A stretch of 24,661 bases of DNA, taken from contig JAZDLW010000007.1 in assembly GCA_043801595.1 (NCBI GenBank), positions 1 to 24,661 on the forward strand. The letters run 5' to 3'. Below the pieces are notes generated by a model that was not told where the DNA came from, made no database searches, and was given only the letters and a program-made list of their open reading frames with translations. A program made the position numbers and the translations under genes. Position 1 is the stretch's first letter. Each line of letters opens with the position of its first letter. Shown piece by piece: positions 2,983-24,336 of the stretch. Source of the DNA: Candidatus Aenigmatarchaeota archaeon. GTDB taxonomy: Archaea; Aenigmatarchaeota; Aenigmatarchaeia; JACPZZ01.

Positions 2983-4095
2983 CTATCTTTGATAATCGGC
3001 TGCTGTTTTAAGTGCAGGGTGTTCCGCATTTTTGGCGTTTAAATAACCTATGACAGCCATGCCATAGATCTGCATCAGCGCTTTCGATTCCCACATCATG
3101 TTTCCTTCGTTTTTGTCCATGACTCTTATCCGTTTGAATGCAAAATCAATATATTTTTCAAAGCCGTCTGGAAGGGCCGGTATGGGATTATCAATGGCGA
3201 GTCCGGGATACTGTACCGCAATCAAATCGCAGCCCGCTTCTATTCCGTAGATCGAATGATGGTCGAATTCGTTTTCGCTTCTTACTCTCTCTTCGGATCC
3301 GAACGCTGTTTTGATTTTTCTGGTGAACTTGTCATTCGAATATATGTGTCTCTCACAGTCATCGGATGTGCGTATTCCATAACCGATTCTTTTTGTCCTT
3401 TCATCAACGCCACGGTTTATTTCGTAAACAGGAACGTTCGTAAGGACTATATCATGAGGAGCGCTTTCGCCTGCCAGCGAAGGCAGGTCTCGAATGTTTA
3501 CACTGATTCCCTGCGAGAATGCCTGTGATAAATCCTCCCTTCCCGCCTGTAAAACTACTTTGGCGCGTTTTCTGAATAATGGAGATCCGTACATTTTCCT
3601 GCCTCTGTACCAGTTGTACGGCGTGTTCGGTTTCATGTCCGTGTTCGGACCGATGCCTTCGAAGTCGAAACCTATAGGCAGGTCGTCAAAAGTTTTTACA
3701 TGATCAAGTGTGAACCTGTTCATCTGTTCTTCTTGCGCTTCTCTTACGCTTAGGTTATCTCTGTTGTATTCCCATCTCTTAGCTGGTAAAAGGTACCATC
3801 GCTTCGGAAGGCTCCGATCATTCATAGGCGGAAAAAATTGGTTTCTTGGTACGCCGATCGTTTGGTGTTCTTTAGTTTTCTCGAGCGTCTCGAAAACACC
3901 GGTCCATCTTTCACCGACAGGCATTGTAAAATCTGGCACGTAAATCGGCAGTAGAAATCTTTTTTGGACGATTTCCCTTGTCACGCCTGGTTTGTTCCTT
4001 GTATAGTTTCCCCAGCTGACATCAATCCTTCGTAGGCTGTCTTCTAATCTTTCCTGCCATGTTGTTCCGCCGTTAATTAGCGTGTCGATGTCCAT
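2983..4095 (-). CDS. Hypothetical protein (370 aa), possible degenerate metal-binding motif (SDDCERH...FDHH)
   Basis: Long ORF with TTATAT at 4124..4119, about 29 nt upstream of the ATG, which suggests a leaderless promoter. Confidence 0.8.
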   Translation of the reverse strand: MDIDTLINGGTTWQERLEDSLRRIDVSWGNYTRNKPGVTREIVQKRFLLPIYVPDFTMPVGERWTGVFETLEKTKEHQTIGVPRNQFFPPMNDRSLPKRWYLLPAKRWEYNRDNLSVREAQEEQMNRFTLDHVKTFDDLPIGFDFEGIGPNTDMKPNTPYNWYRGRKMYGSPLFRKRAKVVLQAGREDLSQAFSQGISVNIRDLPSLAGESAPHDIVLTNVPVYEINRGVDERTKRIGYGIRTSDDCERHIYSNDKFTRKIKTAFGSEERVRSENEFDHHSIYGIEAGCDLIAVQYPGLAIDNPIPALPDGFEKYIDFAFKRIRVMDKNEGNMMWESKALMQIYGMAVIGYLNAKNAEHPALKTAADYQR

Positions 4096-4198: not shown

Positions 4199-5597
4199 TC
4201 AATTGTAGAGTTTTGAAACATATTCATCCAACATGCGCTGCGCAAGAACGTACGGGGCAGAAGAAATCGCGTTCCTTATCATTTCAATCCCTTTTCCGTT
4301 GCTGGAAATATGTACGGCCTCTTCAAGTTTGTCGTCGAAGTTTGACAGGCTATCATCAACCACAAAGGCGTTCTCGCCGTCTTTCAAAGCTTCGGCAGCC
4401 CAGCCTGAAAACGTAGCTGTCTGGATGCCGCCGTTGACAAGTACTTTCATTCCGCTGGTGCCGCTCGCCTCGCGGGCCGCTTCCGGTATGTTAATCCATT
4501 TCGAAGCCTTTACAAGCGCTGCGGCTTTTGCCCTGTCATAATTGGCAATATAAGCTATGCGCGGCGTATCGGAAGTCGTGATCGTCCTGATCAGTTCCCT
4601 TAGGAACCTTTCGCCGCCCTCATCAGCGGGTTTGTCGGAAAATATGAATGTTTCATTTGGAAAGTTTTTGGCACTTCTGAGAACAGCATCCGGTCTTTTG
4701 TAATCGGTAAGCCGTTTTGCATATGTTAAAGGTTCGCGCCCGTCCATGTCAAGGTCTGTGAAGTTGGAAATAACTTCGCCGTCCGCGCGCCATTTGTGGA
4801 ACGCTTCGCAGAGGTCTATTTTGTTAAGATATCTTGCCACAAGCAGTTCTTTGTCGGGTATTTTTGCATCTTTGAGCAATTCGGTTTCATTTCTCCATCC
4901 GGCAGCATATTTATCGTACAGTTGCTGCATGTGCACGCTCATCCACCCAAGAAAAACGGCGTTGGTAACCGAAGTTATTTTTCCGCTGTATTTTTTATCA
5001 GGGTAGAGTTTTTTTGTCTCAGCTTCATGCATTTTGGATACTGCGCAGATAATGTCGCTGCTATCCGCAAGGACTTTGCCAAAATCTATGCACGATTCTT
5101 CTTCGCCGGATTTCATCCATTCCAAAAACTTGTCCTCCATCAATAATTTGCAGTTGTACTTGCCGAATTTTTTGTGGCCATGCCTTTCCGACGTATGCGT
5201 GTGCCATATCAATCCTGCCCTGGCACCGTCCCCGTTTACTCTTGGGTATTATCTCAAAAAAATAGGCTTGCGTATTTTCCGTGCTGAGCGGATCAAGATA
5301 AACAGACACGTCAAAAGGATACCACTTGGTTCCGAGGCTGAGCCTGTCGACCTGGTTTTTTCTGAGCGAATCATTGCTGGCAGGTATGGCATCCGTTGCA
5401 ACCGAATAACCGTTGTTTGCTTTTGTGATTGTTTGGTGTGTTTTCATAGGATAAACCGGGGCAAACATGTAAAACGGAAGATTTCTTCTTCTTGCCTCGT
5501 AGAAAACGTCGGAAGTCAGCCCGCCCAAACCGCCTAAGCCTCCCCCGTCTATCATGTCCGTTTCAAGGGTGGCATAAATGACCGGGTTTTTATCCAT
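4199..5597 (-). pseudogene. glgP: Alpha-glucan (glycogen/maltodextrin) phosphorylase, split into two frames
   Basis: The 5' ORF (5597) has VIYATLE..GGLGGLTSD..NLPFYMFAPVY, matching YFSME..SGGLGVLAGD..LPLVGVGLLY. The 3' frame has WHTHT..GH, AVSKMH, VTNAV, YAKRLTDYKRP, KPADEGG, IANYD and the PLP-lysine motif EASGTSGMK plus GW. The span is 1399 nt (3n+1), with the frame switch between about 5248 and 5213. Confidence 0.85.
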
Positions 5598-12925: not shown

Positions 12926-12951
12926 TCGTTGGCACCAATGTAATTATTATT

Positions 12952-13026
12952 CGACGCTTCTGAAAAAGGTTCTGAACTCGATAACCGACAAATCAATGGA
13001 AAACTTCGGTTTTCGTGCATAGAAAG
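12952..13026. repeat. Degenerate A-type remnant plus B-type palindromic repeat
   Basis: cgacgcttctgaaaaaggtt resembles cgaccttttctgaaa at 14630. caatggaaaacttcggttttcgtgcatagaaag (12994..13026) contains the GAAAAC-TTCG-GTTTTC hairpin and matches the B copies at 14645 and 19232. Confidence 0.65.
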
Positions 13027-13144
13027 TACCATATATATTAGGCTAGTTTCACGAACAAAGCTTCAACTAGATTGAAAAAAAGGAAAAGAAGTAGCGATTC
13101 ACCATTTTCATAGTTTTGTTCGTTGGTTTTGACACATGCTGATT

Positions 13145-13183
13145 AGCTTTAATCAAACTTTTCTAAAAAGTTTAGATTAAGCT
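13145..13183 (-). repeat. A-type palindromic repeat, hairpin at the stop codon of the small membrane gene (possible terminator or 3' stabiliser)
   Basis: agctttaatcaaactttt-cta-aaaagtttagattaagct is an 18-nt-arm inverted repeat with two bulges. A T-rich tract follows on the minus strand at about 13072..13090. Confidence 0.7.
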
Positions 13184-13482
13184 TCTTGTAGCAATGTCAA
13201 CGCAGCAAGCAAAGCTCCGACCAAGACGGCTATGCCGCCCAAGACGCTAAACAGCCCTGCTAGCTGACCACCGAAAGACAGCGAACCCAAACCAATTGTT
13301 GCCAATGTGGCGGTTCCCATGGTTTCAGCCGTTACTCCGGACAGGAGTAGTAAAACTCCGCCCGCAGCAATCCAGCTAAAAGCCTTTTCTGCCATCTTTC
13401 GAAGACCTGTGTACTCAGCTAATGCGAGTACAACGAACACACCTATGACCGGACTACTCAATAGTTCCAAGCCAACAGTCAT
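13177..13482 (-). CDS. Small very hydrophobic membrane protein (101 aa, about 3 TM helices)
   Basis: Strong SD AGGTGA 7 nt upstream of the ATG at 13482. Gly/Ala/Leu-rich TM segments. Confidence 0.8.
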   Translation of the reverse strand: MTVGLELLSSPVIGVFVVLALAEYTGLRKMAEKAFSWIAAGGVLLLLSGVTAETMGTATLATIGLGSLSFGGQLAGLFSVLGGIAVLVGALLAALTLLQEA

Positions 13483-13529
13483 GTCGTTTTCACCTACAAC
13501 TAATTGGAAGGTCATTGATTTAAACACAG

Positions 13530-13571
13530 ATACGTCAATAAACGATATTTATACGTCAATAGACGATATTT
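13530..13571. promoter_or_regulatory. Tandem 21-bp direct repeat with palindromic cores, putative transcription-factor operator pair
   Basis: atacgtcaataaacgatattt (13530..13550) and atacgtcaatagacgatattt (13551..13571) differ by 1 mismatch. The core is CGTC-N4-GACG. Confidence 0.7.
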
Positions 13572-13593
13572 TAGCGCAAAAACCAGTGTTAGA

Positions 13594-13962
13594 TCAACGC
13601 AACGGTTTCTTGTGCTCCCGTGCCAGCAGTAGCGCAAACAGAATCAACAGCAAGGCAGCGTAGTACTTGAAGAAGAGTGCGAAGAAAATCAACGATCTGG
13701 CAACAGTGCTATCGTAAAGCACATACGGATCTCCGAACACGCCGCCCACAAGCGCGTTGTACGAATGGTACGAAGCCTCGGTCAGGTTGGCAGCTCCGAT
13801 TATGAGTATTGAAACGACCAACCCTAGCCACGATAGTGGTCTTTCCTTCTCCTTGTAGCTGTTATAAACGAATTTTAGAATGAAATATGACGCGAAAATG
13901 TAAACGAGCGTTAACGAGAATCCCGAAAATATCAGGAAATTCCAAAGATAGGTGTTGACCAT
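13594..13962 (-). CDS. Hypothetical membrane protein (122 aa, about 3 TM helices)
   Basis: Three hydrophobic segments and a basic C-terminal tail, directly downstream of rpl18. Confidence 0.75.
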   Translation of the reverse strand: MVNTYLWNFLIFSGFSLTLVYIFASYFILKFVYNSYKEKERPLSWLGLVVSILIIGAANLTEASYHSYNALVGGVFGDPYVLYDSTVARSLIFFALFFKYYAALLLILFALLLAREHKKPLR

Positions 13963-14001
13963 GATAATACTTTTGGTTTTGGCTCAAATAAGTTCGCTGT
14001 C

Positions 14002-14571
14002 TCAGAATTTTGCTGCAATCGCTTTCTTAATTTCCTCGAAGTGCGTCGAAATTTCTTCGGGCTTTATTCCGGCCTTTGCGTACGCTGCGAACCGTTTTTT
14101 CAACTCGGATTGGTCGGATTTTTTCAATGCTTCGGCATAACCGGCTATATGCTTTCCGCTGATCCTGTCCATTGTCGGTAGTATTGCCGGATCGTGCGGA
14201 ATCTTCATGCCCGCATCAACCGCGCCTTTCAAAACCGCGTAAATTCCGCCGCCTTTTGTTGAGTCTTGCAACCCTATATCCATAACAGCTTCGTCGGCCT
14301 TGCCTTTCGCCTTCATTCCACAGAGGAATCCGGACAAGTATGCCGCAGGTAAGTTTCCGGTCGGCAGTTTCCAGCCAAAGTTTTTTAATTCCAGGCTGTT
14401 AACAGCCGCGATGGCTTTGTCGCCTCTTGGCGTGTAGCTCACAATCTCCACTATGTAGTTTTTCAATGTCCTCCTTACGACAAATCTCGGTTTCTCGGAT
14501 CGCAGCAGGTTTAACCGCTTGTTGTAGTCTGTTCTTTGTTCTTTTCTGCGCCTGAATTGTAAACTCGTCAT
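14002..14571 (-). CDS. rpl18: 50S ribosomal protein uL18
   Basis: FRRRKEQRTDYNKRLNLL, GNLPAAYLSG, AVLKGAVDAG. Confidence 0.96.
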   Translation of the reverse strand: MTSLQFRRRKEQRTDYNKRLNLLRSEKPRFVVRRTLKNYIVEIVSYTPRGDKAIAAVNSLELKNFGWKLPTGNLPAAYLSGFLCGMKAKGKADEAVMDIGLQDSTKGGGIYAVLKGAVDAGMKIPHDPAILPTMDRISGKHIAGYAEALKKSDQSELKKRFAAYAKAGIKPEEISTHFEEIKKAIAAKF

Positions 14572-15140
14572 TTCTTTTCACTCTTTTTCATTCTCTTTTG
14601 ATCAAACTTTTCCGAAAAGTTTGTTTGGTCGACCTTTTCTGAAACAATGGAAATCTTTGGATTTCCATGCACAGGAAGCTTTGTTTCCTGTGAGATCAGG
14701 TTGTGTTCTTTCAGGTAGAGTTCCAAGTGTTTCCTGCTTCGGAACACGCCACCCTTTGAAAGCTTGTATAATTTTTTGTACGTTTCGTTGTTTATTGTTC
14801 CCGATGCTTTTAACTCACGGATCATCTGTCTCTGCGGTCGTATTGTTCGTATCCATCTTGCCTTTTGTTCATTGCCTGTTCTGGATTTGAAAGATCCTTT
14901 CCTGCTTCCGTGCCCGCGTCTTCGTCCTTTCTTTTTCTGTGCAGCGCGTACAGCTATCTGCGTTTTTGAAGGCGCATCTTCAGGAGCCTTTTCAATTGCG
15001 CCGCTTTTTATTAATTTTCTAACGTCTTCCCTTGTTATGGCTTCCGAAATATCTTTTAGTCTCAATGGCTCCATCCACACCTTGTGCTGGCCGCACTTCA
15101 AGAGTTTTGAAGCCAATCTTCTTTGTATGCTAAGGTTCAT
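14568..15140 (-). CDS. rpl19e: 50S ribosomal protein eL19 with a repeat-derived C-terminal extension
   Basis: QRRLAS..LKCG..KVW, AITREDVRKLI, KGRRRGHGSRKG, WIRTIR. About 40 extra residues follow YLKEHNLI. Confidence 0.96.
   Translation of the reverse strand: MNLSIQRRLASKLLKCGQHKVWMEPLRLKDISEAITREDVRKLIKSGAIEKAPEDAPSKTQIAVRAAQKKKGRRRGHGSRKGSFKSRTGNEQKARWIRTIRPQRQMIRELKASGTINNETYKKLYKLSKGGVFRSRKHLELYLKEHNLISQETKLPVHGNPKISIVSEKVDQTNFSEKFDQKRMKKSEKK
14597..14692. repeat. Composite A + partial A + B palindromic element inside the rpl19e coding sequence
   Basis: tttgat-caaacttttccgaaaagtttg | tttggt-cgaccttttctgaaa | caatggaaatctttggatttccatg-cacaggaagctttgtttcctgtg, 96 bp with these boundaries. 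Confidence 0.8.
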
Positions 15141-15145
15141 TCATT

Positions 15146-15484
15146 TCACCGGTTCAATATTTTTATTTTCGCATCATCGGCCTTCTTGATTATTGCAGCC
15201 CTTTTCTTTCCGCCCACGGACGATGCTATCCGCACCGCGGTCTTTTTGTCCGCCAATTTTGTTATCGTATCCAACTGTTTTTCATTGTGTACCAGCATTT
15301 CCTTGAAACCTGACGGGTGGAATCCTCTCGTGCTGGCGTTTGTGCGATGTCCGACTTTTACGACCCACGCCTTACCGCCTTCGCGCATGCGCATCTTGGA
15401 GTTTATGCCTCTTGGCTTTCTCCACGCTTTGTTATTCACCCTCTTTTCCGCGTACTTTTCCTGCCTTCTGAAATCCTTGCTCAT
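15146..15484 (-). CDS. rpl32e: 50S ribosomal protein eL32
   Basis: FRRQE..KRV..WRKPRGINSKMR, RGFHPSGFKEMLVHN. Confidence 0.96.
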   Translation of the reverse strand: MSKDFRRQEKYAEKRVNNKAWRKPRGINSKMRMREGGKAWVVKVGHRTNASTRGFHPSGFKEMLVHNEKQLDTITKLADKKTAVRIASSVGGKKRAAIIKKADDAKIKILNR

Positions 15485-15485
15485 A

Positions 15486-16010
15486 TTATCGACCCTTTGC
15501 TGTTATGAAAATTCCATCCTGGAAAACCCTTCTGTCATACGCTTTTATCCTTGTTGCCATTTCCATGTTCGACGCTGTTCGACTTACGTCTTCTATGTTC
15601 GAGCCTGTTACGAAAATCTGGTCTCCCTTTAACTCGACTTTCGTGCCCCCTATTATGCGTGCAATTCTTGGCGTGTGTTCCCCGAGGAAATTGTTTATGA
15701 AAATTTTGTCCTTCTCGACTTTGACCGTCATCGGAAAGTGAAGGTACAGTATTTTCAGCGTGTATTCCCAGCCTTCGGTGACGCCTTTGATCATGTTATT
15801 TATGTGCGATGCGATTGTTCCGGCCATGGCTTTTACGACTCTTCTCTTGTTTTTCGGGTTTATCGTTATTGTGCTGCCCTCGACTTTTATGTCAACCGCG
15901 TTTAATCGCATCGGTTTTTTCACAGTGCCGAGTTTGCCTTGTACGACTATCTCATCCTCGCCTATTTCAACTTTCACGTCTTTTGGTATTTCAAGCACGG
16001 CCATATTCAT
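15486..16010 (-). CDS. rpl6: 50S ribosomal protein uL6
   Basis: HINNMIKGVTEG, YLHFPM, NFLGE, DRRVFQDGIFI. The start could be 16013, 16010 or 16004. Confidence 0.96.
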   Translation of the reverse strand: MNMAVLEIPKDVKVEIGEDEIVVQGKLGTVKKPMRLNAVDIKVEGSTITINPKNKRRVVKAMAGTIASHINNMIKGVTEGWEYTLKILYLHFPMTVKVEKDKIFINNFLGEHTPRIARIIGGTKVELKGDQIFVTGSNIEDVSRTASNMEMATRIKAYDRRVFQDGIFITAKGR

Positions 16011-16012
16011 CA

Positions 16013-16399
16013 CTAGTATACAAACGAAAGCAATTTCCCTCCGACGCTCTTTGACTTGGCATCTTTGTGGTCCATCACACCTTTGCTTGTCGTAAGGATA
16101 AGTATGCCAAAGTCCTTTGCCGGCAGGTAGTTTATCTCGATTTTTTCTATGCCTTTTGCTTCAACCGAGTTTCTGGGCGATACGACGCCGCAGTCGTTTA
16201 TTTTCATTATCAGGTCGATTTTAAATTTTCCTATCTTTTTGTCGTCTATCAGTTCAAAGTTTCCTATGTAACCGTCTTTTTGCATTACCAGCAGCACGTC
16301 TTTTATCAGATCGGACGCGGGCGTAACGCATTCCTTTTTGCCCGCATGCTCGGCATTTCTGATTACTGTCAAAGCCTCGTTTAACAAATCTTGTCCCAT
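16013..16399 (-). CDS. rps8: 30S ribosomal protein uS8
   Basis: D.L..AL..I.NAE, YLPAKDFGILILTTSKGVMDH, GGKLL. SD AGGTGA lies before the ATG at 16399. Confidence 0.96.
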   Translation of the reverse strand: MGQDLLNEALTVIRNAEHAGKKECVTPASDLIKDVLLVMQKDGYIGNFELIDDKKIGKFKIDLIMKINDCGVVSPRNSVEAKGIEKIEINYLPAKDFGILILTTSKGVMDHKDAKSKSVGGKLLSFVY

Positions 16400-16408
16400 A
16401 AATTTCAC

Positions 16409-16567
16409 CTAATTATATTTCTTGAATCCTACGCTTTTCGCTACTTCGCGGAAGCATTGCCTGCAATAGTTAAGTCCGTATCTCCGGATTATTGCCCCGT
16501 ATCTGCCGCATCTCCTGCACGTTCTCGAACCGGGCCCGAAATGTCTTTCGCGTTTTACAGCCTTCAT
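16409..16567 (-). CDS. rps14: 30S ribosomal protein uS14 (Zn-binding C+ type, 52 aa; not in the ORF track)
   Basis: Manual translation [56 protein letters not shown] overlap with rpl5. Confidence 0.96.
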
Positions 16568-17070
16568 AATACCTCAGTCCCCATTGATTCTTTCAGCCAT
16601 TCGATTGCCTGATCCTTTGTTATTAAATGATTTTTCCCTATTTTCGCAGGCCGTATTCTTCTTTTCGTAACCCTGTATCCCGGCCTTTTCAATGTTACCG
16701 AAACATCGAAACCCATTATCCCTATTGACGGATCGTATTTCATGCCCGGTATGTCTATGTATTCGTGCACGCCTATGGAAAAATTCCCGTGTTTATCGAA
16801 TTGCGAGGCCTTTATCTTGTTTTCCGACGCTTCCAATACCCTTTTCAGGAAATCTTCGGCAATCTTTCCGCGCATTATCGCCTTTACGCCGATCTGCCTG
16901 CCCTTCGGTACGCCGAACGTGTTTCTTTTTCTTGCTTTTGTTATGACGACCTTCTGCGCGCTTGCCTTTTCCAGCAACTTCTTTGATTTTTCAAGCTTCT
17001 CGCCCGGGCCTCCTGCGCCCATGTTAAGCGTTATCTTCGCGATTGATATTCTAAGCATAGGATTTGTCAT
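16564..17070 (-). CDS. rpl5: 50S ribosomal protein uL5
   Basis: [48 protein letters not shown] lies before the ATG at 17070. Confidence 0.96.
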
Positions 17071-17071
17071 T

Positions 17072-17767
17072 TCATTCACCGAAATCTATCAAAGATTTTT
17101 CTTTTCCTATAGGGAAAACGAACTTGATTTGTGTCTCGTACACGCCTTCGCTTGTTTCAACAATAAGCTCGTTCGCTCTTGAACCGCTTATCGCTTCGAT
17201 CTCTTTCAACTTGGCGATCTTACCTATGTTCTTTCCTCCGGTTACCAGTATCGTTACACCCGGCTCAAGTTTTACGTGCGATACGATTTCTTTTGATGGA
17301 AGCTTTACAACAACTGTATCATTGGGCTTGTAATCCGTCTTGTTCGTTATCAGCGTTGTGCCGTCATGGAAGCTGAGCTGTATTTTTCCGCCTCTTATGA
17401 TTTTTTTGCCCCTGATTTTTAGGAACTTCTTGTCATAATCCTTTGTCATTTCCTTGAGTGTCAATCCTTTTTTCGTAAGCATCATCCTGTAATATTTTTG
17501 CATATCCGGGATGTGCAACACGTCCATCAATCCGACAGGAAAGCCCGTATCTTTTCTTATCACGCCGTCTACCTGAACCTTGCCGGCATTGAGTATTTTT
17601 CTCACTTCAGATGCAGTTTCGGCTACATGCAGAATATCACGAAGTATTATTTGCAAAGGTATTGACGAAAATGCCGGGTGCGGTCCGGCGCTCGGACTGA
17701 CCGTTAACGCTCTGGTTTTGGTTTCGATCTTCCAGAACTTTGGAACAACTTCTCTTTTCGTTTTCAT
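17072..17767 (-). CDS. rps4e: 30S ribosomal protein eS4
   Basis: PSAGPH, LRDIL, VDGVIRKD..FPVGLMDV, QLSFHDG, TGGKNIG. Confidence 0.95.
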   Translation of the reverse strand: MKTKREVVPKFWKIETKTRALTVSPSAGPHPAFSSIPLQIILRDILHVAETASEVRKILNAGKVQVDGVIRKDTGFPVGLMDVLHIPDMQKYYRMMLTKKGLTLKEMTKDYDKKFLKIRGKKIIRGGKIQLSFHDGTTLITNKTDYKPNDTVVVKLPSKEIVSHVKLEPGVTILVTGGKNIGKIAKLKEIEAISGSRANELIVETSEGVYETQIKFVFPIGKEKSLIDFGE

Positions 17768-18162
17768 TTCGCAACACCAGTCTTATCTTTCGCAACGTTT
17801 TCAACTGCGCTTTTAGTTTCCATTATACTCTGTCTCTTTTTGTCTGTTGTGACAAGCTTTATTATCCTGAGTTTTGGCGTCACGAGCGCGACCTGCGCCT
17901 GTGTGCCGTTTCTTTTTTTCACAACAGCAGTATCAACATAGACTCTCATTTTTTTAAGGTCGACCGAAGTTACGATCCCGCTCGTGCCTTTGAATTTTCC
18001 CTTGATTATCTGGACCTGGTCGCCGCTTCTCACTCCCATTGATCTGCGCTTTAACTGCTTTCTAAGTTCCTTGCTTAGCGCGACCTTCATGAATTTTTTC
18101 CTTATGTGCAGCGGTGCGTATAATCGCATTTTCCTCTGCAATCCCGCATTCTTGGTTTTCAT
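17764..18162 (-). CDS. rpl24: 50S ribosomal protein uL24
   Basis: QRK..LYAPLH.R.K, LSKELRK, KOW motif GDQVQIIKGKFKG. Confidence 0.95.
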   Translation of the reverse strand: MKTKNAGLQRKMRLYAPLHIRKKFMKVALSKELRKQLKRRSMGVRSGDQVQIIKGKFKGTSGIVTSVDLKKMRVYVDTAVVKKRNGTQAQVALVTPKLRIIKLVTTDKKRQSIMETKSAVENVAKDKTGVAK

Positions 18163-18163
18163 T

Positions 18164-18562
18164 TTATACCACCTGTGACGCTATCTTTCCAATAGCCGAA
18201 AATCTTTCAACGGCCTCCCTTGCTACAGGGCCCTTTATTTCCGTTCCCGTAGGTTCGCCCCTGTCGTTGACAAGGACAGCGGCATTGTCTTCAAATCTTA
18301 TTCTCATGCCGTTTGCGCGCCTATATTCTTTTTTTTGCCTGATTATTACCGCAAGCACGACTTCGTGCCTTTTTTTAACATCGCCCTTTACCACTGAACA
18401 TACTACAAGATCGCCCATCGCAGCCGCGGGCTTCTTTCGCTTCGTGCCTTTGTAGGTTTTTACCGCGATCAGGTTCAGCGTTTTCGCGCCCGAGTTGTCC
18501 GCGCAGTTTATTACAGAGTCTACGTTTATTCCCCTTGTCGCTGAAGATGATATCGCTTTCAT
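18164..18562 (-). CDS. rpl14: 50S ribosomal protein uL14
   Basis: CADNSGAK, IRFEDNAAVLV, IKGPVAREA. ATG at 18562 follows GAGTGAT. Confidence 0.96.
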   Translation of the reverse strand: MKAISSSATRGINVDSVINCADNSGAKTLNLIAVKTYKGTKRKKPAAAMGDLVVCSVVKGDVKKRHEVVLAVIIRQKKEYRRANGMRIRFEDNAAVLVNDRGEPTGTEIKGPVAREAVERFSAIGKIASQVV

Positions 18563-18566
18563 AAGA

Positions 18567-18908
18567 TCACTCTTTTCCGGACAATTTTTCGACAAGCGTA
18601 AACGACTTCGTCTTGCTCAACGGCCTGCATTCCGCGATCTTGACAGTGTCCCCGATTTTTGCTGCTATGCATTCTGGATTGTACGCTGTTACTGTGGTGT
18701 TTCTGCGCTCGTATCTCTGGTATTTCGATATATATTGGTTGTAACCCCACTTCACGACCGCCGTTTTCGAAGCGCGGCTTGATATGACTTTTCCCACGAA
18801 AACGCGCCCTCTTACAGGCAAAGAGCCGTGCCAGCAGCACTTCGTGTCTTTGCAACTTTTCGCTGGCGGGTTTGCTTCAATCCCGATGTTTTTTTTAGTT
18901 TTCATCAT
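18567..18908 (-). CDS. rps17: 30S ribosomal protein uS17
   Basis: C.D..C.WHG.L.VRG, KYQRYERR, IAECRPLSKTKSF. Confidence 0.96.
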   Translation of the reverse strand: MMKTKKNIGIEANPPAKSCKDTKCCWHGSLPVRGRVFVGKVISSRASKTAVVKWGYNQYISKYQRYERRNTTVTAYNPECIAAKIGDTVKIAECRPLSKTKSFTLVEKLSGKE

Positions 18909-18909
18909 A

Positions 18910-19212
18910 TCACCATTTTTCGATTTTCTTTTTTATCCTGTCCTGCGGACGCCCCACGAGCGTCGCACCGTCAACCTTCACGATCCCGTCCGGGATCGTG
19001 AAGTTAAACCTGTATTTTTCCTTTATCACGGTTTTTTTGCCTTTTGGTGTTGTTAGCGTAAACGTATTTCTCGTTTCATCGAGCACAATGCCGTTGATCG
19101 CAGTCCCAGTGCTTTTCGGACAGGCCGTGCATTGTAAACCGATGATTTCATGCCTTATTATATTTGAAGGCTTTATCATGTCGTCACGTTCTCTTTGCTT
19201 AAGCTCCTCCAT
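18910..19212 (-). CDS. rnp1: RNase P protein subunit Rpp29 (component 1)
   Basis: NIIRHEIIGL, GIVLDETRNT, VDGATLVGRPQDRIK, in the canonical operon position. An alternative start is 19179. Confidence 0.93.
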   Translation of the reverse strand: MEELKQRERDDMIKPSNIIRHEIIGLQCTACPKSTGTAINGIVLDETRNTFTLTTPKGKKTVIKEKYRFNFTIPDGIVKVDGATLVGRPQDRIKKKIEKW

Positions 19213-19215
19213 TTC

Positions 19216-19295
19216 TTTGATTAAACTTTCTCAAAGGAAACGATACGTTTCCTTTGCACGGAAAGCCTTGCTTTCCGTTGTATGAAGAAAGTTTA
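19216..19295. repeat. Nested element: B-type double hairpin inside the loop of an A-type hairpin
   Basis: tttgat-taaactttct[caaaggaaacg-ata-cgtttcctttg cacggaaagc-ctt-gctttccgttg]tatga-agaaagttta fills the SUI1-rnp1 spacer. Confidence 0.85.
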
Positions 19296-19595
19296 TTTCA
19301 GTTGGATCTGGCTTTCCTTGAAACCGTATTTTACCAGTATCGGTTTCAATTTCGCCTTGTGGTCCCCCTGCAACTCTATTCTGCCTTTTTTGTATGTGCC
19401 GCCGCAAGCGAGCTTTGACTTCAGCGTTTTTACGAGGTCTTTTGCGTTTTTTTCATCAACGCCTTCGACGATCGTTACGTTTTTGCCGTAACTCCTCTTG
19501 TCGAGGTATATGATTATTTGCTGGTCCTTTATACCCATTGCCGTGCATATGCAAAGCTCTCGCGGTAAACCGCAGTTAGGACATGTGTCTGCCAT
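19293..19595 (-). CDS. sui1: Translation initiation factor aIF1 (SUI1 homolog)
   Basis: CPNCGLPRELCIC, LKSKLACGGT, IELQGDH. Confidence 0.95.
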   Translation of the reverse strand: MADTCPNCGLPRELCICTAMGIKDQQIIIYLDKRSYGKNVTIVEGVDEKNAKDLVKTLKSKLACGGTYKKGRIELQGDHKAKLKPILVKYGFKESQIQLK

Positions 19596-19858
19596 TATTG
19601 CTCTTTTCCTCCCCTCTTTTTAACCGATTTTTTTGCCGGAACTTTTTCAATTTTTCCGGCTTTCTTATCCTCGTTATTTATTGTGAATATGCGTGCAATC
19701 GCTTTTCGGAATTCCTTGACCTTGCCCGTTTCCTTTATCGCCGCGCCGACTGCCGAACTTCCTTTCAGTTTTGCAAGTTCAAGCCTGAATTCATTGATTC
19801 TTTTCAGCCTGTCCTCGTACTTCATAGTCCTGATATCTTTTGTTCTTAGTATCGCCAT
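19595..19858 (-). CDS. rpl29: 50S ribosomal protein uL29 (Lys-rich C-terminal tail)
   Basis: MAILRTKDIR, GKVKEFRKAIARIFT, operon position. Confidence 0.93.
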   Translation of the reverse strand: MAILRTKDIRTMKYEDRLKRINEFRLELAKLKGSSAVGAAIKETGKVKEFRKAIARIFTINNEDKKAGKIEKVPAKKSVKKRGGKEQ

Positions 19859-19863
19859 TCAAA

Positions 19864-20508
19864 TCACTTTGCAGCCATTTCTGCATTTTCCCTGTTTTTC
19901 TCTTTTTCTTCCATTTTCCTCTTTTTCAACGCTTTCATTTCCTGTTCAATGTTAACAGCCATTATCTGCACCTGTACGCCGACTTTTCCCGGTTTAAGAA
20001 GCGCCTCGGCCTTTCCTCTTGAAACAAGCGTGTTCGCCGTTTCGCCCGAATGCTGCAGGTAACCCTGCATGAATTTTTCTGTTCTTGATTTGTCACCGCC
20101 CATTTTGCCGGCTATGCGTATCTGTATGCCAACCGCACCCGCATTCATTACCCTGTTGATCGTCATGTTGGCAACCCGCTTGTGATTCAACCCGCGTTCA
20201 AGCGAAGATGCAATCTGTCTTGAAATTATCCGTGCGTCAAGGTCTGGATCTTGTACCTCTTTTACGTCAAGTTGGGGATTGTCTATCTTGAATTCGTTTC
20301 TTAGGTGTTCGGTTATGCTCTTGATCTTTTCTCCTCCGCGGCCTATTACGATTCCGGGCCTGTTGGCGAATATGATTATTCTTGTTCCGAGCGGCGTTTT
20401 GCTTACTTCGATATGGGAGTAATCAGCCCGCTGGAACTGGCTCTTCAGGAATTCTTCTATAAGGACTGATCTTATTCCCTCGTTTATGAATTTTCTTTCT
20501 TTTGCCAT
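19864..20508 (-). CDS. rps3: 30S ribosomal protein uS3
   Basis: KTPLGTRIII...RPGIVIGRGG (KH domain), LERG, AGAVGIQIRIAGK. Confidence 0.96.
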   Translation of the reverse strand: MAKERKFINEGIRSVLIEEFLKSQFQRADYSHIEVSKTPLGTRIIIFANRPGIVIGRGGEKIKSITEHLRNEFKIDNPQLDVKEVQDPDLDARIISRQIASSLERGLNHKRVANMTINRVMNAGAVGIQIRIAGKMGGDKSRTEKFMQGYLQHSGETANTLVSRGKAEALLKPGKVGVQVQIMAVNIEQEMKALKKRKMEEKEKNRENAEMAAK

Positions 20509-20510
20509 GT

Positions 20511-20903
20511 TCAAGCCTTCCTTAATATTACCTGTACGTTCGTCATCTTTCCCTGCTGGCCGCTGAGTTTCCTTCTGGTTCTTGGCCTGTGGAACGTGAA
20601 TCCCTTTGTAGCCGAAACTTTTATTATTAATTTATTTGTGTCCAATTCTTTTGCTTTTGCATTCGCCTCGGCGCTTTCAAGCAAGGACAATATTTCCTGC
20701 GTCGCATTGTTGTAAAATTTTCCATCCAACGACGCTTTTCCTTCCAGCACGTTGCGCATCATCGCCTTCGCCTTCTGCAGATTCATGCCGTTTATTGCCG
20801 TGCATATTGCTATGGCGTTTCTTGTCGATATTCTGAGCGCTCTTCCAAACGCCTTTGAAGACGTTTTAGGATTGACTTGCATCGAATATCCAGCTTTTGC
20901 CAT
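20511..20903 (-). CDS. rpl22: 50S ribosomal protein uL22 (short form)
   Basis: AFGRALRIS, LLESAEANA..K.LD, position between S19 and S3. Confidence 0.92.
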   Translation of the reverse strand: MAKAGYSMQVNPKTSSKAFGRALRISTRNAIAICTAINGMNLQKAKAMMRNVLEGKASLDGKFYNNATQEILSLLESAEANAKAKELDTNKLIIKVSATKGFTFHRPRTRRKLSGQQGKMTNVQVILRKA

Positions 20904-20908
20904 AACAA

Positions 20909-21292
20909 TCACTTCAACGGTATGTACTTGCTTGACTTTGTAGCGCCTATTCCCGGAGCGGAATGCTTAACCTCTCTCGTTCCGTGTGAAAACTCTCCCA
21001 GCCTGTGTCCGATCATCTCGTCCGTAAGCGTTATTGCAAAGAATTCCTTGCCGTTGTAAACTCCCACTTTTTTTCCGATCATTTCCGGAAGTATTACCAT
21101 GCTCCTGCAGTGTGTTTTGTGAAATTTATTGGGTTCCCGTCTCATGTTCACGAGGAATATTTTTTGTTGCACTGTCAATCCGCGCTTTAATGCGCGTCTT
21201 GCGCGCGACTTCAACAGCTTGGAAAACTCTTCAAGTGTTATACCCTGCAGTTCTTCCAGTGATTTGCCGCGGAAATAAAACTTTTTTGCCAT
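20909..21292 (-). CDS. rps19: 30S ribosomal protein uS19
   Basis: RARRALKRG, KTHCRSMVILPEM, EMIGHRLGEF, HSAPGIGATKSSK. Confidence 0.96.
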   Translation of the reverse strand: MAKKFYFRGKSLEELQGITLEEFSKLLKSRARRALKRGLTVQQKIFLVNMRREPNKFHKTHCRSMVILPEMIGKKVGVYNGKEFFAITLTDEMIGHRLGEFSHGTREVKHSAPGIGATKSSKYIPLK

Positions 21293-21296
21293 TTGC

Positions 21297-22010
21297 TCAC
21301 TTCTTCCTTCCTGTTCTTCTTGCAGCTATATAACCTATCTTCTGTCCCGGAGGCGCGTTTCTTGATACGGTCTTCGGATGGCCCGGTCTCGTCTTTCCTC
21401 CGTAAGGATGGTCGGCCGCATTCATGCAAACACCCTTTGAACGCGGGAAAAGCTTTCCGCGTGTGCGCATAAGATGCCATTTTGTTCCGCCTTTTACGAA
21501 CGGTTTATCTTTTCTTCCACCGCCAGCTGGAACGCCAACCGTTGCACGGCATAATGGCTTGAATTCTTTTATCTCGCCAGACGGCATCTTCACGTATACC
21601 TTGCCGATATCGTGCGCAACTATCATGCCGAACGAGCCGGATGAACGGCAAAATTTCGGTCCGGATCCGGGCCTTGATTCCAATCCGTAAACAAGAGTCC
21701 TTTCCGGTATTTCTGACAGCGTCAATACGTTTCCCGGCAGCGGCGGCGCCGCTATTCCGCATGAAATAACGCTGCCGACGTGTATCCCTTCCGGTGCGAT
21801 TACGAGAATTTCCTCGCCGTCCGCTAATTTCAATTTTGCAAGCGGCGCGTTTCTTCCTGGGTCGTGAAGTAATTCGATAACAGTCGCCTGCGATGTCGCG
21901 TTTGCACCTTCTATCGATGGATATTCGACAACACCCGCCCAATTATGGGATGGGGCTGTGTAAGACAACGAACCTTTTCCGCGCGCCCTTACAATTTGTC
22001 GTTTTCCCAT
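21297..22010 (-). CDS. rpl2: 50S ribosomal protein uL2
   Basis: MGKR...RARGKGS, HDPGRNAPLA, MNAADHPYGG, SRNAPPGQKIG.IAARRTG. Confidence 0.97.
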   Translation of the reverse strand: MGKRQIVRARGKGSLSYTAPSHNWAGVVEYPSIEGANATSQATVIELLHDPGRNAPLAKLKLADGEEILVIAPEGIHVGSVISCGIAAPPLPGNVLTLSEIPERTLVYGLESRPGSGPKFCRSSGSFGMIVAHDIGKVYVKMPSGEIKEFKPLCRATVGVPAGGGRKDKPFVKGGTKWHLMRTRGKLFPRSKGVCMNAADHPYGGKTRPGHPKTVSRNAPPGQKIGYIAARRTGRKK

Positions 22011-22021
22011 TTACAACACCC

Positions 22022-22363
22022 TTATAACATTCCCAGCCTTGTCGCTATTTCCGAGGCCGAATAATCCTTTGACAATTTTACAAACGCCTTTTTCTGGCCT
22101 TTTCTCGTTATCGACGTTTTGACATCCTCGACAACAACATCGAAAGCCTTTTCCATTGCACATTTTATGTCGTTCTTGTTAGCGTCAAGGTTAACTATGA
22201 ATACAAGCTTGTTTTCCTTTTCTATCAGCCTTATCGATTTCTCAGTCATTAACGGATGTGATAAAACTTTCCATTCGTCTTTTGTGAGCGTTCTCTTTAC
22301 GGGTTTCTCCTTGCTTGCCGGTTTCTGCGCGACTTTTTTGGTTTTTGTTTGTTCTTCCGCCAT
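22022..22363 (-). CDS. rpl23: 50S ribosomal protein uL23 (N-terminal Lys-rich extension)
   Basis: PLMTEKS..LIE.ENKLVFIV, GQKKAFVKL, A.EIATRLG. Confidence 0.95.
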   Translation of the reverse strand: MAEEQTKTKKVAQKPASKEKPVKRTLTKDEWKVLSHPLMTEKSIRLIEKENKLVFIVNLDANKNDIKCAMEKAFDVVVEDVKTSITRKGQKKAFVKLSKDYSASEIATRLGML

Positions 22364-22364
22364 G

Positions 22365-23159
22365 TTACTTTGCCTCCGCTAATTTCTTTATCGCGGATTC
22401 CGTCCATACTGTTAAACGGCCTTGCGTCCCGCCTGGCGCTAAAAGTTTCGCATTGATGTTCACGATATCCGTAACATCAACGCCTTCGATGTTTGCCGCG
22501 GCTTTCGCTATTCCCTCGTTTTTGCCTACGACTATGAGCGGCCCTGTTTTCATTTTGTATTTCCTGCCCCTGCCCTTTCCTTTTCCAGCTCTTATGGTTT
22601 TTTCCGCTATTCTTTTTAATTCATCTTTCAAGCCCAGTGCAATGAAAAACTTTTCAACATCGCTCGTCTTGGAAATTTTTTGCAACCCGTCATCAACTAT
22701 GATCGGAAGTTCGATTACGGAAAGTTTGTGCCCTCTTTTCGACACGGCGTCCTTGTTCGCCGTCGCCGCTATTGCAGACTGGATTGCCAGTTTCCTTTCC
22801 TTGTCATTGATTTTTTCCAGAAAAACTTTTCTTTCCAGCGGCGGGTGCGCTAATCGCCCTTTAACAGCGTGCGGCGCAAATCTTAATCTCATGTTAAGGT
22901 AGCCTTGTCCCGTTATTCTGGGCCCCCTTGCCATTTCTTTGTTCGCCATGGAATTGAACACGCTTCTCCTGCCGTGGTAATGCGCGGATGTGCGCTTGCC
23001 GGCCATGGGATCGCGTGAATGTTTCCGTCTTGATTTTGACACCAATGAAAGAAATGCCCTAAGCACCAGATCCTTGCGCGCCTCTGTCAGAAATACCTTT
23101 GGAAGTTCGATCTGATTTTTTACCTTTCCGTTCATGTCGTAAACATTTGCTTTTGTCAT
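22365..23159 (-). CDS. rpl4: 50S ribosomal protein uL4
   Basis: DPMAGKRTSA, GRLAHPP, RAGKGKGRGRKY, LLAPGG..GRLTVWTESA. Confidence 0.96.
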   Translation of the reverse strand: MTKANVYDMNGKVKNQIELPKVFLTEARKDLVLRAFLSLVSKSRRKHSRDPMAGKRTSAHYHGRRSVFNSMANKEMARGPRITGQGYLNMRLRFAPHAVKGRLAHPPLERKVFLEKINDKERKLAIQSAIAATANKDAVSKRGHKLSVIELPIIVDDGLQKISKTSDVEKFFIALGLKDELKRIAEKTIRAGKGKGRGRKYKMKTGPLIVVGKNEGIAKAAANIEGVDVTDIVNINAKLLAPGGTQGRLTVWTESAIKKLAEAK

Positions 23160-23161
23160 GA

Positions 23162-24157
23162 TTATGCACCCTGCTTGCTTTCTGTCGAAATCGATTTTAT
23201 TTCCGGTAGCGGCGGCATCAACGAAGGCGGTCTGATTGATAATCTCATTCGTATGAGTCTTTTTCTCGGACCTGCAACAGATCCCTGCAAAATAACGTAG
23301 TCACCCGGTATTGTTCCGTAGCCTACGAATCCGCCAGACGGCGTTATCGCGCTGTTTTTGTCGCCTATTAAAATGACTCTTTTATTGAATTCTGTTCTCT
23401 TATGGAATCCAAGTTGTCCTGGCAATGGTACGGTCCATCGCAGTTTTCCCGGTCTCTTCTGGCCCATTGAACCTATACCGCGCCTGTTCTTTCCTTCTTT
23501 GTGGCTCAGCATCTTGACACCGTGTCTCTTGATTGTACCCGCAAAACCTTTTCCTGTCGTTACTGCAACAACATCGATCCAGTCGCCGTTCTTAAGTGTA
23601 TCCTTGACCGAGATCTCTTTTCCAAGAACCCGCTTTGCGTATTCAAGTTTCATTTTTATGTCGTTTCCGCCTATGGCAGTTTCGAATACTTCTGGTTTTT
23701 TCTTGCCAATGCCCGCCTTTCTCGGTACCGTATGAACAATGAGCCTGACATCGTCGATATTTTCGACGGATTCGAATGCTTTAAGGTTTTTTTCGAAATC
23801 GTATTCTTTTGGAAGTTTCATTTTTCTGGAAAGGTCTTTTTGCAAATTTTTGAATAATACGTCCTTTGTGGATCTCAAACCGGTCGGGCTACGCGAGTAA
23901 ACGCGTAATCCGAAAACAAAAATAGGCGGGCAATCAATGATGGTTACCGGTATTTGCGTAATCTGGCCGGTTGTTGGCGTGTTGGCGCGTTTATCCACGG
24001 CCATAATGTGCGTCATTCCCGCCTTATAGCCTGCGAAACCCAACGGTTTCACGTCCTTTGAAACAGGCCACGTTCGTACGACTGGATAAATCCTTTTAGC
24101 CCTTTTCCTCGGCTTGAATGCTAAACTTCCTTTTCTTGGTGATTTTACTACAGGCAT
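23162..24157 (-). CDS. rpl3: 50S ribosomal protein uL3
   Basis: PRKGSLAFKPRKRA, GFAGYKAGMTH, TTGKGFAG, GQLGFHKRTEFNKR, GSVAGPRKRLIR. Confidence 0.97.
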   Translation of the reverse strand: MPVVKSPRKGSLAFKPRKRAKRIYPVVRTWPVSKDVKPLGFAGYKAGMTHIMAVDKRANTPTTGQITQIPVTIIDCPPIFVFGLRVYSRSPTGLRSTKDVLFKNLQKDLSRKMKLPKEYDFEKNLKAFESVENIDDVRLIVHTVPRKAGIGKKKPEVFETAIGGNDIKMKLEYAKRVLGKEISVKDTLKNGDWIDVVAVTTGKGFAGTIKRHGVKMLSHKEGKNRRGIGSMGQKRPGKLRWTVPLPGQLGFHKRTEFNKRVILIGDKNSAITPSGGFVGYGTIPGDYVILQGSVAGPRKRLIRMRLSIRPPSLMPPLPEIKSISTESKQGA

Positions 24158-24218
24158 ACGCCTACCCCACTCTATTCAAAAACTGTACAAGAAGCTCCCA
24201 GCTTCTTTTTTCCGTCCC

Positions 24219-24336
24219 TTTAGCCAAACTTCCTATAAGTTTGTAAAAGGTCGTACAGAAACCACGCCAGCGCATGATTTTTGGTTTGAGGGCCTATCAA
24301 TCGCACGGAAACCAAAACCGTACGGTTTTATCGCCC
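24219..24336. repeat. Cluster of degenerate A-type and B-type repeat fragments and palindromes upstream of rpl3
   Basis: tttagc-caaactt-cctat-aagtttg (A-like), aaaaggtcg (right arm of the cgacctttt variant), gcacggaaacc (B-like, 24303..24313) and the perfect palindrome aaaaccgtacggtttt (24314..24329). Confidence 0.6.

Follow-up and report, generated by a model that had tools for sequence, protein, structure and literature searches.

Presence/absence-variable palindromic elements of two families in an Aenigmatarchaeota genome, one of which prefers the 3' arms of other hairpins

Several kinds of short palindromic element bear comparison with those reported here, and we introduce them as they appear in the relevant portions of the cited reports. 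In the archaeon Haloquadratum walsbyi, SMR-A is a transposase-free element that measures ~110 bp and has prominent terminal inverted repeats; its copies are commonly >95% identical (PMC3119063). It makes no target duplication and prefers the near-terminal palindromes of PATEs and IS605-type elements, by a mechanism that was called enigmatic (PMC3119063). PATEs and terminal-only (52 bp) IS605 derivatives are described there as short and palindromic, without terminal inverted repeats or target duplication, and as hosts of a second element. Repeats of the REP, BIME and REPIN-RAYT kind are lineage-specific intergenic hairpins of 20-65 nucleotides (nt), which form mosaic clusters, have ends that supply stop codons and occasionally occur in frame (PMC3116915, PMC3733652, PMC6006769, 10.1101/2021.07.10.451892); in the passages that deal with their distribution, REPIN-type systems are reported absent from archaea (PMC6006769). 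Finally, the class II triplex motifs PIT, BoxC and TMECO are dispersed, are linked to rearranged loci and to polymerase blocking in vitro; TMECO is G/C-rich and folds in vitro (PMC4666352). We have analysed a 24,661-nt stretch of DNA from Candidatus Aenigmatarchaeota archaeon (assembly GCA_043801595.1, contig JAZDLW010000007.1, forward strand; hereafter the window), in which an initial annotation had noticed two families of REP-like hairpins, type A and type B. The two families are almost certainly mobile, and we observed that type B prefers to insert into the 3' arms of other hairpins, namely those of type A, of type B itself, of a third family and of IS605 ends, without duplicating its target.

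The source genome assembly (G000) comprises 813,961 bases in 32 contigs and is 86% complete. The window is its contig C31; other contigs of G000 are named C4, C17, C23, C30 etc, sister genomes G001-G006, and other records and metagenome contigs are given L-numbers. A strict type B pattern matched 37 positions in G000 vs 0-1 in 5 order-4 Markov genomes, and a strict type A pattern matched 35 vs 0. With stepwise removal of nested copies, a structural finder recovered 63 type B copies of 46-52 nt in G000 vs 0 in each of 4 controls, and the type A finders recovered 51-52 loci, which gives 63 B and ~51 A in 814 kb of short, lineage-specific and mostly extragenic palindromes. A loose single-hairpin finder was set aside as unspecific (91 matches in G000 vs 29-38 in controls). 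In named records, 31 of 35 loci with the type B pattern belonged to Aenigmatarchaeota, a distribution that fits the DPANN-like host guessed in the initial annotation, 2 to further archaea and 2 to others (Nitrososphaerales and Woesearchaeota). The Nitrososphaerales match was rejected for lack of the second hairpin, and that from Woesearchaeota has both hairpins but is single-copy within a different hairpin cluster. Viral contigs were likewise rejected as carriers: 15 matched the first hairpin, and we took these as chance matches because the second hairpin was absent from all 15. Of 301 genomes of the class, 6 contain the long form of the type A pattern, and these belong to a single genus, that of G000.

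We characterized type B from 136 copies (131 distinct) drawn from G000, the sister genomes and metagenome contigs. The element, 5'-CAA...TG-3', measures 46-52 nt in 135 of the 136 copies and consists of two abutting hairpins with no spacer. Hairpin 1 is formed by CA, a bulged base (A in 122 of 131), ~8 pairs and TG, and hairpin 2 runs from CA to TG; CA/TG is the only sequence common to the termini, and prominent terminal inverted repeats are lacking. Type B starts at the hairpin foot, with no guide tail and no tetranucleotide 5' of the hairpin. The suggestion that its structure is conserved more than its sequence held at pairs left out of the selection of the 131 distinct copies, in that pair 9 of hairpin 1 was paired in a fraction of 0.98 vs 0.32 after shuffling, and pairs 10 and 11 of hairpin 2 in 0.92 vs 0.40 and 0.71 vs 0.32; the innermost pair of hairpin 1 was not kept (0.21). 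Two exact filled/empty pairs show a host A with and without the element and thereby define its ends. At the eL19-uL18 junction the same A occurs in G003 with a 52-nt B and in G004 without it, and in the leader of the L3 operon near-identical A copies occur in G006 with a 48-nt B and in G001 without one. When we searched for type B ends separated by cargo, as in an autonomous element, we obtained 13 lone hairpins, which we interpret as nested, interrupted or cut-off copies, and none bracketed a gene.

By sequence class, type A hosts 33 of the 136 B copies, another B hosts 19, a third twin-hairpin family 4 and right-end hairpins of IS605 elements 3 (at L168, L181 and L199); the other 77 lie elsewhere. 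The B-in-B insertions, 19 of 136 copies, are all at one bond, between TTT and YCRTG, and all in the same orientation, with 0 at the equivalent site of the opposite strand. Targets restored by removal of B from G000 fold at a median of -7.7 kcal/mol vs -2.9 for random intergenic sites, and the cut fell within a 3' arm at 21 of 63 sites in G000 vs 147 of 2000 random intergenic sites; among all 136 copies, 3' arms accounted for 52 and 5' arms for 7. No fixed word of 4-6 nt was shared by the targets, which were restricted only to A/T at -1 (127 of 136) and to bases other than G at +1 (133 of 136), and the 77 copies outside the named targets had 74 distinct 12-nt flank pairs and 66 distinct left 6-mers. 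Matches of 2-8 nt between flanks occurred at the level of shuffled sequence, and a match of at least 5 nt was found in 0 of 136 copies.

At L166 (~3615-3662) an IS605-type mini-element of ~48 nt lies after TTAA in the loop of the second hairpin of a B, and real PATE-like units exist in this genus as a separate family. Further twin-hairpin families of 48-50 nt, with ends TTGAG...CTCAA plus WTAG...CTAW, were seen at L054:1463-1512, L045:817 and 3571, L072:5052 and L080:1391; one such family breaks the Y1 transposase gene of G006, and others lie inside hairpins or inside B.

Type A, read on its majority (gene-sense) strand, has the order YRANC, pyrimidine arm, loop of ~3 nt, purine arm, GNTYR and tail. 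It is thus a hairpin of ~21 nt followed by a purine tail, and it occurs singly or in head-to-tail arrays. The tail opens with a trinucleotide whose last base is C (mostly ATC, AGC or ACC), is purine-rich thereafter and, in the long form, ends AAAAGAGAATG. It is a mirror of the purine arm, not its complement or a direct repeat: where a G-C pair of the stem lies 0, 2, 3 or 4 bases from the foot, the G of the tail is offset by the same number; this held for 23 of 24 informative copies of G000 and 6 of 6 in relatives, and a permutation test gave 368 vs 316.6 +/- 6.4 (n=77). The succession of pyrimidine arm, purine arm and mirror tail is the signature of a class II intrastrand triplex, which is the fold that we predict for type A from its sequence. 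At 9 of 51 loci type A starts on the stop codon of the host gene. The idea that its 5' pentamer is always derived from the target was ruled out by two empty sites (13148 and C17:68970) that lack the whole A, including the pentamer.

Both elements come and go between genomes. At orthologous junctions compared with G006 (n=391), B was present only in G000 at 20, only in G006 at 7 and in both at 1, and the corresponding figures for A were 20, 12 and 2; compared with G005 (n=341) they were 20, 2 and 0 for B and 21, 4 and 0 for A. C17:16654 and C27:578 share a 136-nt A[B[B]] unit (98.5% identity) between unrelated flanks, from which it follows that A can travel with cargo. The B copies at window position 14645 and at C30:22083 are near-identical, yet each is hosted by a different A subtype; hence B can also travel alone. 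Together with the counts given above, these comparisons support the initial description of dispersed, non-autonomous elements, variable in presence, in a DPANN archaeon; their frequency exceeds the shuffle level, and their positions are not confined to fixed orthologous sites. Both families are real, as that description held, but they are not independent: B is inserted in A, which that description had overlooked.

The same comparisons bear on whether the hairpins could instead mark fixed gene boundaries as conserved regulatory signals (terminators, or elements for processing or translation start). Type A is co-oriented with genes, has a T-rich 5' arm, is often found at stop codons or tRNA ends and has a long-form tail that ends in ATG, and a few sites, such as C23:148174, hold A in all three genomes compared. 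However, nearly all copies are genome-specific, the insert between the genes for SUI1 and the RNase P subunit p29 is missing in 5 of 5 relatives, and nesting and an in-frame insertion into eL19 are not properties of signals. As an account of origin, this is largely refuted by the orthologous junctions and we regard it as very improbable; secondary regulatory use of single copies is possible.

Template switching or gene conversion at stalled forks, through short homology between hairpin arms and A-rich gene ends, would require no dedicated enzyme, and none has come to light. It would be favoured by the 9 nt that the C17/C27 composite has in common with the native site, by the 9 of 51 A loci that start on a host stop codon, by the 52 of 136 B copies that lie in A or B, whose arms could supply homology, and by truncated nested copies, which fit repeat-mediated deletion. 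On the other side, the ends of B and its length of 46-52 nt are constant across 74 flank pairs without duplication, and the empty sites of 13148 and C17:68970 lack the whole A, 5' pentamer included. Compensatory changes also keep the stems, which therefore appear to be under selection for a recognised fold. Overall we consider template switching unlikely; for A it is a minority possibility, for B it is distinctly less probable than that.

Transfer RNA genes are frequent neighbours of the elements. Five predicted tRNA introns hold A and/or B (C19:6366, C21:17809, C23:126414, C30:21680 and C30:22003), 8 more of the 37 tRNAs in G000 adjoin A or B, and the tRNA at C23:102593 has in G006 an intron starting with A and in G000 no intron. 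These locations might suggest an RNA route, in which the element is excised by the tRNA splicing endonuclease, circularised, reverse-spliced and copied back by reverse transcriptase, and the tendency of A to follow gene direction (51:11) and the reverse transcriptases in G003 and G006 would fit it. Yet neither G000 nor G005 yielded a reverse transcriptase. B frequently runs antisense to the gene that hosts it, for instance in eL19 and in three tRNA introns, and also occurs where both neighbours point the opposite way. Furthermore, the triplex predicted from A's sense strand is of the purine-motif type, a fold that the relevant portion of PMC4666352 describes as impossible in RNA. We regard the RNA route as quite unlikely. 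Separately, tandem and nested arrays of another family, a single hairpin (GAAAC...GTTTC) with a bulged A, lie immediately upstream of tRNA genes at C23:155584-155915 and 167962-168282 and in the orthologous stretches of G005 and G006.

Strand preference was examined by taking the sense that is G-richer at fourfold sites of neighbouring genes as leading, pooled over three genomes. By this measure, B lies on the inferred leading sense in a ratio of 44:17 (17:4 where two neighbour genes disagree) and A in a ratio of 57:12 (17:5 where neighbour genes disagree). For comparison, IS200/IS605 elements act on the lagging-strand template, according to the passages that treat them (PMC6006769).

We then looked for a mobiliser by chosen protein families in G000, the general Pfam scan being of the 15 window proteins. 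In this 86% complete assembly no protein matched the Y1 family (Pfam PF01797), and a profile made from the Y1 proteins of 10 relatives gave a best E of 2.1. The numbers of genomes with a match were, for Y1, 15 of 61; integrase, 3 of 8; IS110, 0 of 8; reverse transcriptase, 2 of 8; resolvase, 2 of 8; TnpB, 7 of 8; Cas1, 2 of 5; and Y2, 0 of 5 over the cut-off. The TnpB domain was present in 7 of 7 relatives, Y1 in G004 and G006 and not in G005, and reverse transcriptases in G003 and G006. A scan for the HUH motif in proteins of 80-450 amino acids (aa), among 898 predicted, gave 4 matches, none with a downstream tyrosine motif, and of 40 open reading frames (ORFs) bracketed by hairpins none was transposase-like by eye. 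The Y1 genes of G004 and G006 have G+C-rich ends of their own, unlike A and B, and that of G006 is broken by a twin-hairpin insert. Neither A nor B was found at the ends of these 2 Y1 loci or of the 6 of 31 tnpB-domain matches examined. In a second comparison of contigs, one joint skips a nested B locus (L065, 17592-17761), with 18 other letters between and no clean boundaries.

It had been proposed that the repeats are REP/REPIN elements or IS200/IS605 ends handled by Y1/RAYT HUH enzymes and mobile as ssDNA (single-stranded DNA) hairpins. The second part of this proposal is consistent with the strand bias and the lack of target duplication. The first part found no support in our comparisons and stands as an analogy: G000 has no Y1 and hence no such gene flanked by the repeats, the ends of the sister Y1 genes are unrelated, B has no guide tail, and the tail of A mirrors its stem. 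A related explanation is that an IS200/IS605 TnpA or RAYT enzyme, supplied in trans by passing insertion sequences, acts on A and B as substrates of the REP/PATE type. Besides the lack of target duplication and the leading-sense bias, it would be supported by the circulation of IS200/IS605 in the family (the TnpB domain in 7 of 7 relatives, Y1 in G004 and G006), by the bulged base near the foot of B (A in 122 of 131) and by a TCAA just 3' of the hairpin in one variant of the A tail, TCAA being the IS608 right-end site. However, Y1 is absent from G000 and G005, and neither A nor B marks the ends of the sister Y1 genes or of the 6 tnpB loci inspected. B itself inserts into IS605 right ends, a true IS605-type mini-element lies within a B loop (L166), and the G006 Y1 gene is broken by a twin hairpin. 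Furthermore, B has neither the 5' tetranucleotide nor the fixed target word described for these enzymes, whose RAYT-type subclasses were not seen in archaea, as far as the cited passages extend (PMC6006769). Supply of a Y1 enzyme in trans thus has, in our judgment, a low probability.

The absence of duplication, the strand-polar targeting of 3' arms, nesting in one orientation and the leading-sense bias make a reaction on the lagging-strand template the simplest reading, and movement of A and B by an ssDNA route is probable. We lean, by a narrower measure, towards gene-less elements that move as folded ssDNA at the replication fork and are cut and rejoined by an enzyme acting in trans. That the enzyme is of the HUH type is less likely than not, and IS200/IS605 elements may help in trans, since they are common in the family. 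Folded B would resemble a nicked dumbbell in which both ends are brought together at a TG/CA junction similar to the internal one. It would be excised as a closed circle or dumbbell of ~50 nt and joined into a hairpin on the lagging-strand template, with formation of a three- or four-way junction, and replication would resolve the branched product. Type A would fold as a purine-motif intrastrand triplex, serving as a recognition fold or slowing the polymerase, and might thereby become a frequent target for B. Copies persist at tolerated spots, such as stop codons, tRNA ends, tRNA introns and protein termini. In its fullest form, the proposal is a hairpin-into-hairpin system without a known transposase, in which a ~50-nt dumbbell (B and its sister families) is strand-exchanged into folded fork DNA, and the triplex A, handled by the same enzyme, carries B and seeds tRNA introns; as a whole this is doubtful.

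It should be noted that a number of observations weigh against movement of A and B as folded ssDNA. Hairpin loops were not enriched as B targets (13 of 63 vs 485 of 2000), and targets were not classed as hairpins in 52 of 136 copies, with 27 of 63 unclassed in G000. The type B finder demands CA and G ends, so that the fixed ends rest on the filled/empty pairs, and a few of the 136 copies may be false. With respect to A, the mirror rule depends on four subtype states, not on 30 independent events, and 28 of 52 copies in G000 are uninformative; moreover, A has 4-7 triads and a second linker of 8 nt, partly outside the published limits of intrastrand triplex searches (ITxF), given in the cited passage as stems of 6-15 triads and loops of 1-6 nt (PMC4666352). 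The 5' boundary of A is also fuzzy, nine bases of the shared unit at C17:16654 being native in G005, and a few sites (e.g., C23:148174) hold A in all three genomes compared. The leading strand is itself inferred from GC skew at fourfold sites; B stands at 10:9 where both neighbours are opposite, 15 B and 25 A loci have no strand call, and A follows gene direction as well (51 vs 11), consistent with selection linked to transcription or with a step through RNA. Lastly, G000, at 86% completeness, gave no match to Y1, TnpB, tyrosine integrase, IS110, reverse transcriptase, Cas1 or serine resolvase, and none over the cut-off to Y2, and no circle or excision was seen in the contigs, the only material compared.

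The minus strand of the window carries the L3-to-uL18 ribosomal protein cluster, and the type A copies of the window all lie on that strand, in the single orientation first reported for them. Those at 13148, 14597, 14624, 19216 and 24219 are present in the sequence, and the stretches that contain them folded better than 200 shuffles, with z-scores of -2.4 (13146-13176), -4.9 (14595-14700), -9.1 (19214-19297) and -5.1 (24217-24246). The two full B copies, at 14645-14692 (plus strand) and 19232-19280 (minus strand), gave -6.4 and -8.6. In contrast, 12950-13030 (z -0.4) and 24298-24336 (z -0.2) folded no better than shuffles. The first of these stretches includes a supposed A remnant at 12952-12971 (minus), which is doubtful and based on resemblance only, and a partial B at 12994-13025 (plus), correctly recognised at the outset, with the first hairpin and 8 nt of the second; 27 nt at 12996-13023 are missing from one contig (run X1) of a relative that is ~92% identical. 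The A at 13148-13174 (minus) is of the short form, with a 21-nt hairpin and 6-nt tail, and lies 2 nt after the stop codon of a 116-aa ORF. It is a clean addition of 27 nt, as G003 has the same flanks without these nucleotides and without duplication; G001 has a different A plus B at this site, and G002, G004, G005 and G006 have none. Downstream of the same ORF, at ~13060-13135 (minus), a non-coding motif is kept in 6 of 6 sister genomes, and in G006 it contains a B-like insert.

The cluster at 14597-14698 is not intergenic and lies within the eL19 reading frame. It consists of a long-form A at 14589-14623 (minus; hairpin 14623-14603, followed by the tail ending AAAAGAGAATG), whose junction is empty in G005 and G006, and a second, imperfect A of the CGACC subtype at 14624-14698 (minus), which is split by the 48-nt B at 14645-14692. 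Read from its opposite strand, this B, which differs by 1 nt from the copy at C30:22083, encodes part of the 30 residues by which the eL19 C-terminus is extended. In contigs from runs X1 and X3 of one study, which derive from a relative with ~91% identity, 14600-14693 is skipped in frame; this allele may be ancestral or a later deletion. Palindromic repeats translated in frame in housekeeping proteins are known as Rickettsia palindromic elements and as a coding repeat of Methanocaldococcus. Other lineages carry multi-hairpin clusters of their own, different in sequence, in similar places, as at the eL19-uL18 junction of L019 (G009, another family) and in L179/L044.

Between the SUI1 and p29 genes, the spacer is 113 nt in the window vs 0-3 nt in 5 of 5 sister genomes. 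It contains the 3' half of an older A of the TAAGC subtype, with its tail, at 19189-19204 (minus; absent in 5 of 5 sister genomes), and an A with mirror tail (purine arm AAGAAA, tail AAAGAA) at 19213-19295 (minus), the first 3 nt of which are the SUI1 stop codon. The 49-nt B at 19232-19280 splits the latter A one base into its 3' arm. A degenerate A at 24219-24243 (minus) marks a variable site inside the L3-operon leader: G001 has an A here, G006 a near-identical A with a 48-nt B, G004 a member of another twin-hairpin family, and G003 and G005 no full A.

The stretch at 24303, first taken as a B fragment, belongs instead to a conserved structured leader upstream of L3 (24256-24338, minus), which is kept in 5 of 5 sister genomes for which L3 was available (L150:15219-15300, L113:5248-5328, L082:2752-2835, L083:18151-18235 and L084:356-438). 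The leader measures 81-85 nt and has a consensus fold of -27.1 kcal/mol with little covariation (two-sided change in 2 of 23 pairs). One invariant loop could pair, by complementarity, with a stretch further downstream that is likewise invariant, and a pseudoknot is possible; judged from sequence, the leader is a candidate ribosomal autoregulation element. In the window as a whole, the leader included, there were 0 Rfam matches at gathering scores and no predicted tRNA, and a sigma-70 promoter/terminator scan, which is poorly suited to archaea, listed none of the elements among its signals. ORFs at 1-669, 1354-2487, 2521-2952 and 2983-4095 (143-377 aa) had no Pfam match at E 0.001, and a 337-aa ORF at 4199 had a weak phosphorylase match. 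Sequence from the end of C4 reappears at the start of C31, as does that of the 24303 region at the start of C30; these may be contig overlaps, which the BLAST filter did not recover.

Ever since the description of SMR-A it has been an open question by what route repeats move that target hairpins with neither a transposase nor target duplication. The present elements offer substrates of ~27-40 and 50 nt whose ends and target bonds are defined and of which natural variants exist, so that synthetic oligonucleotides can serve to assay cell extracts or candidate proteins. They also edit core genes of an 800-kb genome (30 extra residues on eL19, the 113-nt SUI1-p29 spacer and inserts in tRNA introns). 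If true, a hairpin-into-hairpin system would be the smallest self-targeting class of mobile DNA, with a new strand-transfer activity, and a likely answer to movement of the SMR-A kind.

We set these elements beside known systems by description, as far as the cited passages describe them. In habit, A and B resemble REP/BIME mosaics, being lineage-specific, with ends at stop codons and an occasional in-frame copy, but they have no GTAG/CGTC-type tag, no inverted doublet with spacer and no Y1 gene in the assembly, the three features that mark REP/REPIN-RAYT systems, and they differ also in their A/T-rich stems and in insertion into hairpin stems. The majority strand of A has the same strand order as PIT and BoxC (class II; class IV on the other strand), but it is rich in A/T and counts 4-7 triads, and its palindromic linker of 8 nt lengthens the duplex; these dimensions of the predicted fold fall partly outside the published size limits for such motifs. 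A also shows clean presence/absence and carries cargo. The in-frame copy in eL19 resembles the Rickettsia and Methanocaldococcus repeats by description, although in-frame copies are exceptional here. From classical miniature inverted-repeat transposable elements moved by DDE enzymes, B differs in having neither terminal inverted repeats nor target duplication; our mobiliser search was of families other than the DDE transposases. PATEs are of the same size class as B, and A, like them, hosts a second element, with no target duplication for B or for A at the 13148 pair, but PATE palindromes match IS605-type ends, whereas A and B match none of the IS200/IS605 ends examined in the genus. Like SMR-A, B targets palindromes of other mobile elements, including IS605 right ends, with no duplication and no transposase; unlike SMR-A, it is 46-52 nt long, with two abutting hairpins, is divergent with compensatory changes and nests in itself at a fixed bond. 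In the literature searched, which covered few subscription journals, we found no description of either family. The A/B system is thus apparently undescribed in print and a variant of the archaeal transposase-free palindromic elements, in which the A and B pair works like the PATE and SMR-A pair of Haloquadratum (PMC3119063).

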